Below, one piece after another: positions 1-43,806 of a DNA stretch of 58,342 nucleotides (position 1 is the first letter of the stretch; the number at the start of each line of letters is the position of its first letter). The notes under the pieces were generated by a model. The model did not search any database. It was not told where the DNA came from and was given only the letters and a program-made list of their open reading frames with translations. Made by a program: the position numbers and the translations under genes. Source of the stretch: a phage. Location of the stretch: the sequence record PZ445426.1. The stretch is one strand, 5' to 3'.

Positions 1-1560
1 ATGGAGCTAAACCGACAACCTGATAACATGCCGCGAGTAGTCTGGAAGCCACATCCAGGTTCACAGACGCTCGCTTTATCCTGCCCTGCTGATATCATTT
101 TATACCACGGTACTCGCGGTCCTGGAAAGACGGACTGCCAGCTTATGCGTTTCCGTAAGAATGTTGGCGTAGGGTATGGTAAGTTCTGGAAGGGTATTAT
201 ATTCGACCGTGAATATAAAAACCTTGATGACCTTGTAACCAAATCACAGCGTTGGTTCCCCGAATTTAAAGATGGTGCTAAATTCCTTAGCTCCAAGTCT
301 GATTATAAATGGGTTTGGCCCACTGGGGAAGAATTGCTGTTCCGTGTTGCTTGCAAAGAAAAGGATTATTGGTCTTATCATGGTCACGAATACCCGTTTA
401 TCGGATGGAACGAATTAACAAAGTATCCGGACGGGCGTTTGTTTGAAGCAATGATGTCCTGTAACCGTTCATCGTTCCTACCAGAAGATAATCCAATTAT
501 CAATCCGGATGGTACTGTCACATATTTACCAGATATTCCTCTGGAAGTGTTCGCTACCAGTAACCCGTTTGGTGCGGGGCATAACTGGGTTAAGAAACGC
601 TTCATTGACGCTGCGCCGATGGGTAAAATACTCAGGAAAACTACGCGAGTGTTCAACCCGCGGACGCAGAAAGAGGAAGATGTGGTTACGACGCAATGCC
701 ATATCTTCGGATCTTATCGTGAGAACAAAAACCTAAGCCCAAAATATATTGCAGAGCTTATGTCTATCACAGACCCGAACAAACGCGCTGCATGGTTGGG
801 TGGTAGCTGGGATATTACTTCAGGTGGTATGTTCGATGACCTGTGGCGTAGCACGGTTCATAAAATACGCCCTTTCCCGATTCCAGCGAGTTGGAAGATC
901 ACACGTTCTTTCGACTGGGGTTCTTCAAAACCTTTCTCTGTTGGTTGGTGGGCTATTAGTGATGGTTCGGACGTTGTGCGTGAAGATGGTACTACATTCT
1001 CCACGGTCCGCGGTGACCTGTTTAGGATTAACGAATGGTACGGGACCAACGGTAAAACAAACGAAGGTCTACATTTGCTGGACTCAGAGATTGCAAGCGG
1101 TATACTGGAGCGGGAATTGGCCTGGGGTATACACGATCGTGTAGTTCCTGGACCTGCGGATAACTCTATTTGGGATCTGGAGAACAATAACTCTACCGCT
1201 GCAACAATGGCGAAGAAAATTCGTCTTAACGGGAAGTTATACGACGGTATACATTGGAAGCGTAGTGATAAGTCTGCTGGGTCACGTAAACGCGGATGGC
1301 AGAAAATGCGTGAGTTTCTTAAAGCTGCATTGCGGGAAGATGCAAACGGTAAGCCTTTGCCGGGACCACGTGAAAATCCAGCAATGTATGTTTTCGATAA
1401 CTGCAATTATTTCTTTGAACTTGTTCCAAGTCTTCCGCGCGATGAAGTAGATCAGGACGACGTTGATACGGAATGTGAAGACCATATGGGCGATGAAGTT
1501 CGTTATATGGTTCTGGATCAAGCTGTTTATACAGGTGTTGGCAAAACTATCGGTATTTAA
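1..1560 (+). CDS. terL: terminase large subunit
   Basis: 519-aa ORF; Walker A-like GTRGPGKT near N-terminus; first gene of the packaging/head block; terS-like ORF at window end. Start could be ATG at 28. Confidence 0.75.
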   Translation: MELNRQPDNMPRVVWKPHPGSQTLALSCPADIILYHGTRGPGKTDCQLMRFRKNVGVGYGKFWKGIIFDREYKNLDDLVTKSQRWFPEFKDGAKFLSSKSDYKWVWPTGEELLFRVACKEKDYWSYHGHEYPFIGWNELTKYPDGRLFEAMMSCNRSSFLPEDNPIINPDGTVTYLPDIPLEVFATSNPFGAGHNWVKKRFIDAAPMGKILRKTTRVFNPRTQKEEDVVTTQCHIFGSYRENKNLSPKYIAELMSITDPNKRAAWLGGSWDITSGGMFDDLWRSTVHKIRPFPIPASWKITRSFDWGSSKPFSVGWWAISDGSDVVREDGTTFSTVRGDLFRINEWYGTNGKTNEGLHLLDSEIASGILERELAWGIHDRVVPGPADNSIWDLENNNSTAATMAKKIRLNGKLYDGIHWKRSDKSAGSRKRGWQKMREFLKAALREDANGKPLPGPRENPAMYVFDNCNYFFELVPSLPRDEVDQDDVDTECEDHMGDEVRYMVLDQAVYTGVGKTIGI

Positions 1561-28130: not shown

Positions 28131-28150
28131 ATTTCCTCCAATGACTAAAA

Positions 28151-28182
28151 AGCCCATACCAGTATTATGACCGATATGGGCT
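28151..28182 (-). terminator. intrinsic terminator-like hairpin (AGCCCATA...TATGGGCT + U-tract) downstream of folE
   Basis: 8-bp stem read directly; plus-strand A-run gives a U-tract on the minus strand. Confidence 0.4.
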
Positions 28183-28201
28183 TGATCTGTAAAGCTATCT
28201 A

Positions 28202-30666: not shown

Positions 30667-30786
30667 ACTTTTGTTCTCCAGTTTTAACAGCGTTATTCGC
30701 TGGTTGTTGGGTTTAAAAGCTTTAGTAGTATAGTTGGGTCCCCGCACCCTAAACAATGCGCTAGCGGTGCGGTTTTCGCGGTAAGA

Positions 30787-31684: not shown

Positions 31685-31889
31685 CTTCTACACCTTTAAT
31701 ATCACAAGGATTGATTGTTACATTTGACATCACAATTGGATGATTGCGTGCCCCAATTGTGCTAACGTGATTAATATCTAATTCTACATGCACGCCCTGC
31801 ATAGTAGCATGAGCAATTGAAGAATTAAGTTTTTCTACCAGCTCAGTGATCATTTCCTGATGCTGTTTCGCTTCTTCCAAAGTGATCAT
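31677..31889 (-). CDS. hypothetical protein
   Basis: 70-aa ORF; start overlaps queE stop. Confidence 0.35.
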   Translation of the reverse strand: MITLEEAKQHQEMITELVEKLNSSIAHATMQGVHVELDINHVSTIGARNHPIVMSNVTINPCDIKGVEDE

Positions 31890-32596
31890 TATTCCACCCC
31901 GATATATTTATGAACCTGAAGCTGCAACGTGTAACCGTGTTTCATACAGCTTTGGACAACCGCTTGGATATTGCTGTGGTTAAGGTCTTCATCCTGCTCG
32001 TCCATTGGCTGTAAATATATCTTACCCTTGAACCCCTTCGGAGGTCTAGCGATAAATGGCGTAGCTTGATGATCTAATGCTTGAAGAGGTAAACCATCTT
32101 CCACGTTTACACAGCACGCTTTAAGTACATATTTAAATGCATTAGCGCGGCGCAGCACAGAAGGATGAATCTTTGAGGTCTTGGGACTACATACAATCAC
32201 AGGTAACTGGGAAAAGTTCTTAGGTAAAGGCATAGATCCATTAGTTTCAATTTGCACCAAATACCCGCGCGATAACAGTTGTTCAATAAACGGGTTAATT
32301 TGCTGACGGAACGGTTCACCCCCAGTGATAACCACAAGTGAGGTGCTATTGCCTGATTCCAGCTTACGGCTTTCGATTAAACGCATAATATCGACAATAT
32401 GATAAAGACTACGACCAACAGTATAATCTGTATCACAGCCAGGGCATTGCAGATTACACCCAGCAAGACGCACAAATACAGCAGGTTGGCCGCAGAATGG
32501 ACCTTCACCCTGAATGGTAGAGAATACCGAATGGACGTCTAAATACATATCGTTTTCTTTAGAACGGGACTCGGGAGCTTGTTGATTAATATTCAT
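31889..32596 (-). CDS. queE: 7-carboxy-7-deazaguanine synthase (radical SAM)
   Basis: VFVRLAGCNLQCPGCDTDY (QueE-type CxxxCxxC cluster); GAGGA RBS. Confidence 0.8.
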   Translation of the reverse strand: MNINQQAPESRSKENDMYLDVHSVFSTIQGEGPFCGQPAVFVRLAGCNLQCPGCDTDYTVGRSLYHIVDIMRLIESRKLESGNSTSLVVITGGEPFRQQINPFIEQLLSRGYLVQIETNGSMPLPKNFSQLPVIVCSPKTSKIHPSVLRRANAFKYVLKACCVNVEDGLPLQALDHQATPFIARPPKGFKGKIYLQPMDEQDEDLNHSNIQAVVQSCMKHGYTLQLQVHKYIGVE

Positions 32597-32618
32597 CTTA
32601 AATCCTCTAGTGAAAAAG

Positions 32619-32640
32619 AAAGCGCCTCATTGGGCGCTTT
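32619..32640 (-). terminator. intrinsic terminator hairpin (AAAGCGCC-caatga-GGCGCTTT + CUUUUUC) immediately upstream of queE
   Basis: read directly; TTGTAA-18-TATAAT promoter-like hexamers abut it at 32642..32671. Confidence 0.5.
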
Positions 32641-32665
32641 CATTATAACGTGATATGTTTTGATA

Positions 32666-33469
32666 TTACAAGCCGTTCAGGGCTTCCGGTACTGGCATAG
32701 GCACACGACCAGTTACACCATTGAACTTCTTCCAACGTGCATACTGAGTTTTAACAGTATCTTCGTTCAGACCGTGACGACCTGCCAGATTCAGAACATA
32801 AGAGATCGGAGCAGGCTGACCCAGCGTAGCGCTAATCTGATCCATCAGAGCCCAGGCACGACCGCAGGAAGTTTCCGGTTGCGGACGGCGAACACCGTTC
32901 TGTTCAGGCATACGATTAGCTTCTTTTTCTTTCTCGCGGAGCTCTTTAGCGCGTGCTTTTTCCGCTTCTTTTTCTGCCTGTTTTGCAGCACGAATCTTGT
33001 CTTTGAAGCCTTTAATAGTAGCTTCCAGACCATCCACCAGACCCTGAGCAGAAGTTACAGCACCGGACAGGTCTTCACCTTTAGACTTCTTAACGACAGC
33101 TTTCAGCTCTTTCAGAGCTTCTTTAATGGTCTTCAGGTTTGCAGATCCCTGAGTTCCTGCTTCCGTGATCTGTTCAACAGTGCTTTCGTCGGTGACGGTA
33201 GCCAAAGAGTTTTTCAGGATTTCAGCAGCGTTAGCAATCGCATTAAATTTGTTTTCCGCTTCAATGCGGATTTCAGCTTGTTTCTTTTCAGCGGCAGCTT
33301 TTTTCTCTGCTTCTTTTTTCTCTTTTGCTACGCGTGCAGCTTCAGCAGCAGCGGCTTTCTTAGCTTCTGCATCATTCACAGTAGCTTCTTTCTTTGCAGG
33401 TTTAGCAGATTTTGCAGCGGCAGCAGCGGCAGCAGCGGCAGCGGCTTTTTTATCTTCAATGTTGCTCAT
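32666..33469 (-). CDS. Lys/Ala/Glu-rich histone-H1-like protein with poly-Ala tract
   Basis: ATG 33469 with GGAG RBS (track start 33478 is GTG); N-terminal KKAAAAAAAAAAAAK and KAAAEKK repeats; globular C-terminal 90 aa. Confidence 0.45.
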   Translation of the reverse strand: MSNIEDKKAAAAAAAAAAAKSAKPAKKEATVNDAEAKKAAAAEAARVAKEKKEAEKKAAAEKKQAEIRIEAENKFNAIANAAEILKNSLATVTDESTVEQITEAGTQGSANLKTIKEALKELKAVVKKSKGEDLSGAVTSAQGLVDGLEATIKGFKDKIRAAKQAEKEAEKARAKELREKEKEANRMPEQNGVRRPQPETSCGRAWALMDQISATLGQPAPISYVLNLAGRHGLNEDTVKTQYARWKKFNGVTGRVPMPVPEALNGL

Positions 33470-33596
33470 TCTCTTCACTCCGAATTGTTATGGGTTCGTT
33501 TGTTACCAACGGGGTTAAATGTACCAAAGGATTTTGTGACACGCAACCCCTTATCTGAACATTTTTAAAAATATTTTTGATCAAGCTTAGAACTTA

Positions 33597-34091: not shown

Positions 34092-34150
34092 TGCGATCCC
34101 CTATAAATAAGTAATGCCCCAATAGTAGGGGCATTAGATGTTGAAGTCAA

Positions 34151-37541: not shown

Positions 37542-37606
37542 TGGAATACCTTAGAAAAATAAGCCGTCTTTCGACGGCTTATGGACACTACAGAGGGAGG
37601 GTTAAC

Positions 37607-40828: not shown

Positions 40829-40871
40829 AATAACTCCTGTTAAAAAGGGGTCTACTGACCCCTTTAGTTTA

Positions 40872-43727: not shown

Positions 43728-43774
43728 ATTTACCTCCTTTATACATATTTTAATATGAAGTAAAATCAATCTCA

Positions 43775-43806
43775 ATAAAAAAGCGCAACGTTTTCACGCT
43801 GCGCTT
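43775..43806 (-). terminator. intrinsic terminator (AAGCGCA-loop-TGCGCTT + UUUUUUAUU)
   Basis: read directly in the intergenic region upstream of the HNH gene. Confidence 0.55.

Follow-up and report, generated by a model that had tools for sequence, protein, structure and literature searches.

Organization of the queE locus

The window, that is the whole 58,342-nt stretch of phage DNA analysed here (PZ445426.1), is assigned to Seuratvirus (Queuovirinae). Over 1.8 kb, Dru_SM1 is 96–97% identical to it, and Seurat and CAjan are ~92% identical. The region shows local mosaicism: in the window segment 31800..33600, Dru_SM1 is the closest relative over the 1.8 kb (96.7%), yet it is 95% identical around the intergenic region before queE, where SLUR75 is 98.8% identical to the window.

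The junction studied here separates a 267-aa ORF (orf267) from a queE-like gene. Its elements are the following (positions are those of the window):

32666..33469, minus strand: orf267, the 267-aa ORF upstream of queE (PHROG 11298, unknown function; no Pfam match)
32666..32671, minus strand: -35-like hexamer TTGTAA (4/6 compared to TTGACA)
32648..32665, minus strand: 18-nt spacer, from direct reading
32642..32647, minus strand: -10 hexamer TATAAT (6/6 match)
32633..32637, minus strand: predicted transcription start zone, from spacing rules, with G32635 as best candidate
32618..32641, minus strand: predicted intrinsic-terminator hairpin, from folding (9-bp stem, 6-nt loop CAAUGA; top-ranked site)
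32613..32621, minus strand: U-rich tract UUUCUUUUU, whose first four bases lie within the stem (TTTTT = 32617..32613)
32603..32607, minus strand: queE Shine-Dalgarno GAGGA, 6 nt upstream of the ATG (32596), invariant in relatives
31889..32596, minus strand: queE-like radical SAM gene (Radical_SAM and Fer4_12 matches; QueE in annotations of relatives)

The queE-like gene, with its ATG at position 32596 (minus strand), is the first of a downstream unit ordered queE, two small ORFs, queC, a yhhQ-like transporter gene, two unknown ORFs, queD and folE. Pfam matches on this unit are to QueE-like radical SAM, QueC, Vut_1/YhhQ-like (weak match), QueD (PTPS family) and FolE. Judged by this gene content, the queE-to-folE unit encodes a complete preQ0 (7-deazaguanine DNA modification) pathway. 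The next strong minus-strand hairpin with a U tract after queE is found at 28183..28150, directly 3′ of folE.

Inside the unit, the ~120-nt gap from queC to the yhhQ-like gene carries a GC-rich hairpin at 30742..30772 (minus strand, CCGCACCGC...GGGUGCGG) without a U tract. Two sister genomes, SA80RD and SA126VB, mark a terminator called by WebGeSTer only between queC and the transporter gene; a canonical terminator was rejected at this place in the window because the hairpin lacks a U tract. As for orf267, the N-terminal half of the protein is rich in Ala and Lys, and public records give it conflicting names (‘FtrA domain transcriptional activator’, ‘plectin 1’, ‘outer capsid protein’). A 302-aa plus-strand ORF (32660..33568) is wholly antisense to orf267 and looks spurious.

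Promoter-like hexamers upstream of queE

Direct reading of the minus strand confirmed the arrangement TTGTAA-18-TATAAT at about 32671..32642 that the initial annotation had proposed, with coordinates that were essentially correct. The TTGTAA hexamer is preceded by ggc, and its last three bases, TAA (32668..32666), serve as stop codon for orf267 upstream. Taken together, the two hexamers match the consensus at 10 positions out of 12, at a spacing within the 16–18 nt of sigma-70 promoters. Some features count against a promoter here: the -35 matches at only four of six positions, the 18-nt spacer is suboptimal and there is no TG extension. The flank upstream of the -35 is GC-rich and carries no UP-like element.

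Matches of at least 10/12 are expected ~0.02 times per ~75-nt stretch. Over the whole region, 45 promoter-like matches were counted, compared to 35.5 ± 5.1 in shuffled sequences, which is no significant enrichment. Since hexamer matches are common in the region, the promoter call rests on comparative evidence.

Predicted terminator hairpin and U tract

The hairpin 32641..32618 ranks first among terminator-like sites in 24–43 kb. It is formed by the arms G-AAAGCGCC (32641..32633) and GGCGCTTT-C (32626..32618), which enclose the loop CAATGA (32632..32627), and its stem is composed of six G-C and three A-U pairs. The calculated ΔG is -15.6 kcal/mol (z = -5.0), and none of 200 shuffled sequences folds equally well. 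The site has what is expected of an intrinsic terminator, namely a GC-rich stem with a short loop, a U tract directly 3′ and a gene upstream on the same strand; the stem begins 24 nt past the stop codon of orf267 (minus strand). RNA 3′ ends at this hairpin are expected at ~32613..32617.

The initial annotation had described this element as an 8-bp GC stem with U-tract (32640..32619) ending about 15 nt before the queE RBS. The hairpin and its U tract were found, whereas size and composition had to be revised, with a stem of 9 bp that includes three A-U pairs. The distance to the RBS was overestimated: the stem ends 10–11 nt before it and the U run 5 nt before it.

The last bases of the U tract (UUUUC) are able to pair with the queE GAGGA across a 4-nt loop (32603..32617, minus strand), the resulting helix being weak. 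As this helix is invariant, covariation speaks neither for it nor against it; such a pairing might slightly mask the queE RBS.

Three other interpretations of the hairpin were considered and rejected. A bidirectional terminator was discarded because the sequence that comes after the hairpin on the plus strand, TCATTATAACGT, is poor in T. A small RNA gene was discarded because only ~20 nt separate the predicted +1 from the U tract. Finally, the pattern GCGCC-N6-GGCGC is found once in the window, not above chance, which excluded a repeated element or a regulon.

Conservation of the junction in relatives

We compared 16 distinct regions upstream of queE from Seuratvirus relatives. None of the 12 columns of TTGTAA and TATAAT is variable in this set, compared to 16 of the 18 spacer columns (Fisher p = 1e-6), and the segment from the -10 through the RBS has five variable columns of 51, compared to 134 of 295 for the coding sequence that flanks it (Fisher p = 4e-7). 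Most of this variation comes from two or three diverged genomes, which makes for a small effective sample. All 16 relatives have a spacer of exactly 18 nt, and so does Klebsiella phage K4PH164. Thus, hexamers and spacing are conserved and the spacer sequence drifts, as is expected for a sigma-70 promoter. Hafnia phage yong3 keeps TTGTAA without coding constraint, its upstream gene ending before the hexamer. This pattern of conservation, a comparative argument, raises the putative TTGTAA-18-TATAAT promoter above chance, and the site is likely a host sigma-70-type promoter predicted to restart transcription for the preQ0 genes.

In the hairpin, the five core G-C pairs of the stem are invariant, and true compensatory evidence comes from two places only, the outermost pair and an inserted one. 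The outermost pair, G-C in the window, is U-A in yong3 and is broken in STP-SP5. In ECP2304 and WildeMaa, an A to G change on one arm of the stem gives a G.U wobble. Within the U tract, only its C varies (to A), in diverged relatives.

K4PH164, which belongs to another lineage of Queuovirinae, has the same order and spacing of elements before queE. A TTGACT overlapping the upstream stop codon is followed by 18 nt, by a -10 (TAAACT) which keeps A2 and T6 and, one base later, by the hairpin AAAAGCGTCC/TAATT/GGACGCTTTT. This hairpin differs from that of the window by its loop and by an extra U-A pair formed by both arms; the extra pair was deduced from direct reading and folding, the structure-aware MAFFT alignment being poor there. 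In the same K4PH164 locus, a tRNA-Ser gene and a second promoter-like site, of the extended -10 type (TGGTATAGT), lie at 1051..1139, between the module and queE.

A more distant QueE locus (L007, 47% protein identity) carries a terminator, then an extended -10 promoter (TGTTACAAT), before queE. The boundary before queE therefore recurs, since a terminator and a promoter are found there too, in the opposite, conventional order.

Taken with the canonical terminator, the promoter-type conservation (invariant hexamers, variable 18-nt spacer, -35 retained in yong3) speaks for the proposal, made in the initial annotation, that queE and the genes downstream of it would be under separate control.

Predicted start site and the question of attenuation

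The choice of start sites at Escherichia coli sigma-70 promoters follows known rules, on the basis of which we favour G32635. This base is the seventh after the -10, has a C at -1 and lies within the 5′ arm of the hairpin, the -10 ending 1 nt before the stem. An RNA beginning at G32635 would keep three of the nine stem pairs (GCC/GGC), with a stability of -4.0 instead of -15.6 kcal/mol. A start at G32637, unusually close to the -10, would leave a 5-bp GC stem beside the U tract and some self-termination would then be possible.

Because the predicted +1 lies in the 5′ arm, transcripts from the promoter would have no leader for sensing. The position of the +1 within the stem also means that the terminator is best read as acting on transcripts coming from upstream and not on those of the promoter itself.

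An Rfam scan of 32400..32900 gave no family near threshold, preQ1 riboswitches included; the weak matches obtained (sraL, csRNA, etc.) cover the terminator stem only. Neither a fold of 221 nt nor RNAalifold on seven sequences revealed an antiterminator or an alternative fold, the terminator hairpin being the only stable and conserved structure. A preQ1 or other riboswitch or leader was rejected on the basis of this sub-threshold scan and of the lack of a leader between the predicted TSS and the terminator. The suggestion of the initial annotation that control might be attenuated is thus not borne out, given the absence of an Rfam match at threshold and of an antiterminator and the predicted +1 inside the 5′ arm; the promoter–terminator pair before queE is probably not an attenuator.

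Similar modules and other hairpins in the window

Two other places in the window associate promoter-like hexamers with a terminator-like hairpin:

34112..34150, minus strand: module A, 3′ of the helicase gene; TTGACT-17-TACTAT, the loop of the terminator-like hairpin 34136..34112 containing the -10
28150..28193, minus strand: module B, 3′ of folE; TTTACA-18-CATAAT, the loop of the hairpin 28183..28150 containing the -10

In module A, the predicted +1 is A34115, in the 3′ arm. In STP-SP5 and yong3 the -35 of this module is invariant and its spacer is variable, at a length of 17 nt; the -10 in the loop reads TACTAT, TATTAT or TATAGT, A2 and T6 being kept. Module A is likely the start of an orf164–orf267 unit that would end at the hairpin 32641..32618. 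The hairpin of module B has 14 bp (-20.8 kcal/mol) followed by a U run, and its predicted +1, A28157, is again in the 3′ arm. The SA126VB record marks an overlapping promoter and terminator after folE, at the place of module B. SA126VB, yong3 and STP-SP5 carry module B unchanged, with different genes downstream, so that it looks like a conserved junction at a mosaic breakpoint.

The queE site and modules A and B share one geometry: the predicted +1, a purine preceded by a pyrimidine, falls within the hairpin, at exactly 7 nt from the -10. A predicted +1 falls inside three of the seven minus-strand intergenic hairpins (Poisson p = 0.002, which becomes 0.04 if intergenic DNA has three times the background rate). 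No such stacking of a promoter was seen in any of the plus-strand terminators of the late genes.

Other minus-strand hairpins are organized differently. The strong hairpin 43806..43781 (-17.4 kcal/mol) is followed by a T tract, then by TTGAGA-17-TAAAAT (43775..43747), in the conventional terminator-then-promoter order. Strong hairpins with U tracts at 40845..40864 and 37559..37582 occupy very short intergenic gaps without a promoter-like site; these two are probably partial terminators inside operons.

Previous annotations and known systems

A promoter and a rho-independent terminator are already annotated upstream of queE in the GenBank records of vB_EcoS_SA80RD (OL960575.1) and vB_EcoS_SA126VB (OL960573.1), and a terminator is annotated at the homologous place in Seurat (KM236243.1). 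The position is orthologous in these three phages and the sequence is identical to the window from the -35 to the queE ATG. The features of SA80RD and SA126VB are computational calls (TTGACA(N15-18)TATAAT with 2bp mismatch for promoters; TransTermHP and WebGeSTer for terminators), and the sister-phage annotations are silent on geometry, start site and function. The searchable literature yielded no map of transcripts for Queuovirinae, CAjan or Seurat, and phage ONT-cappable-seq papers yielded no precedent.

Terminator-based attenuators and riboswitches, the preQ1 riboswitch for example, occur upstream of queuosine genes. The junction resembles them in having a terminator hairpin between a promoter and que genes. 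It differs in that the window has no aptamer, leader, Rfam match or alternative structure and the predicted start is inside the stem.

The closest described arrangement is that of promoter-coupled terminators, in which the TTS lies ~10 bp upstream of the TSS, the T tract is just upstream of the -10 and the DNA of the stem-loop doubles as -35 (Fletcher, Forrest ... Grainger, bioRxiv 2026, 10.64898/2026.08.19.745784). As in that class, the terminator and the promoter of tandem units share a short intergenic DNA before queE. The predicted TSS (32635) and TTS (~32613..32617) are within ~20 bp of each other, inside the 35 bp that delimit the class, but the defining feature, a TTS upstream of the TSS, is absent at the queE site. 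There, the order is reversed: the -35 and -10 come before the stem and the TSS is inside it. The window site 43806..43747 and the more distant QueE locus resemble the published order.

Alternative explanations

One alternative is that the junction holds a terminator only, partial read-through of which supplies queE, the hexamers being inactive and conserved for other reasons or because divergence is limited. The abundance of promoter-like matches in the region (45 compared to 35.5 expected) and a -35 of 4/6 with an 18-nt spacer are in line with it; so are the Seurat annotation, which has a terminator alone here, and the minus-strand terminators at 40864 and 37582, which stand between genes without a promoter and indicate that read-through operons are present. 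We nevertheless hold this explanation unlikely, in view of the hexamers being invariant when 16 of 18 spacer positions vary at a fixed length, of the TTGTAA that yong3 retains outside coding sequence, and of K4PH164, where the -35, 18 nt and -10 are re-created with different bases and compensating indels. In an attenuation scheme, by contrast, transcripts of the promoter would include the hairpin and be terminated in part before they reach queE, possibly under regulation. A terminator placed between promoter and queE is what such a scheme requires, and with a start at G32637 the 5-bp GC stem would be kept at the U tract (stability estimated). Against this, the favoured +1 is inside the 5′ arm, as the -10 abuts the stem; a sensing leader, an Rfam match above threshold and a conserved alternative structure are lacking; and in both module A and module B the hairpin loop contains the -10, which makes self-termination geometrically impossible there. 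Attenuation thus appears improbable.

The palindrome AAAGCGCC-N6-GGCGCTTT (~-5 to +17) could also be an operator binding a phage or host regulator that times the preQ0 genes. Its position is typical for repressor operators, the segment is conserved beyond the strict need of a terminator, and terminator palindromes doubling as transcription-factor sites have been reported by the Grainger lab (LexA, yobI terminator; preprint 10.64898/2026.08.19.745784). Variants however keep RNA pairing and not DNA symmetry (the one-arm A to G change giving a G.U wobble), and the conserved U tract points to a function at the RNA level. Moreover, no candidate regulator was found, the neighbouring proteins having no Pfam match or falling only in PHROGs of unknown function, and the palindrome is unique in the window, leaving no regulon. 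We consider an operator slightly less probable still than attenuation. As to the hairpin mainly protecting the 3′ end of the upstream mRNA, or being cut by an RNase, instead of acting as a termination site, stable 3′ hairpins do protect mRNAs, and sequence by itself does not separate a protective stem from termination. This last explanation is the least probable, and indeed very improbable, considering that a U tract conserved right after a GC-rich stem is the defining feature of a terminator and that other annotators obtained the same call with two terminator predictors.

Proposed mechanism

The best reading, to which we give a probability of about 0.55, is that the terminator of the upstream unit is overlapped by a promoter which restarts transcription of the preQ0 unit, and that the terminator insulates rather than attenuates. 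Sequence elements, thermodynamics, conservation and gene content were computed; promoter activity, the position of the +1 and termination in vivo are what we infer from them.

In this overlapping arrangement, upstream transcripts would start at module A and carry orf164 and orf267, and would stop at the Rho-independent terminator formed by the hairpin 32641..32618 and its U tract, with 3′ ends at 32613..32617. Host RNA polymerase would restart at ~32635 from TTGTAA-18-TATAAT for the queE-to-folE unit. Transcripts from this promoter would be without most of the 5′ arm, so that no terminator would be formed and they would read on into queE; the unit would end at the hairpin 28183..28150. It is because promoter transcripts could not form the stem that the terminator is expected to insulate the downstream unit.

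More tentatively, with odds somewhat below even, the three modules may be read as conserved ‘inside-out’ modules, in which the terminator stem that closes one unit would contain the start site of the next, a promoter–terminator coupling of reversed polarity that would be present in Seuratviruses and at least one other lineage of Queuovirinae. At queE the +1 would be in the 5′ arm, whereas modules A and B would have it in the 3′ arm. An element of at most 70 nt would thereby halt incoming polymerases, its own transcripts being structurally immune to termination. Three such modules would delimit successive early/middle transcription units, two of them bracketing the preQ0 operon. An inside-out module would also bring its own kind of interference in polymerase traffic.

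Implications

The elements themselves are of textbook kinds and already annotated in sister genomes, and in this respect the junction is an ordinary one; for the same reason the practical gain is modest. Its geometry is unusual and conserved, and possibly under-appreciated. Should the proposed arrangement hold, it would represent a natural and conserved overlap of promoter and terminator, in the opposite order to the class described in bacteria. It would be useful for testing the interference between incoming and promoter-bound polymerase, and would offer synthetic biology a compact insulator-plus-restart part. For the phage, it would mean that the preQ0 DNA-modification genes are expressed apart from the upstream replication genes, by means of the host RNA polymerase and with little sequence.
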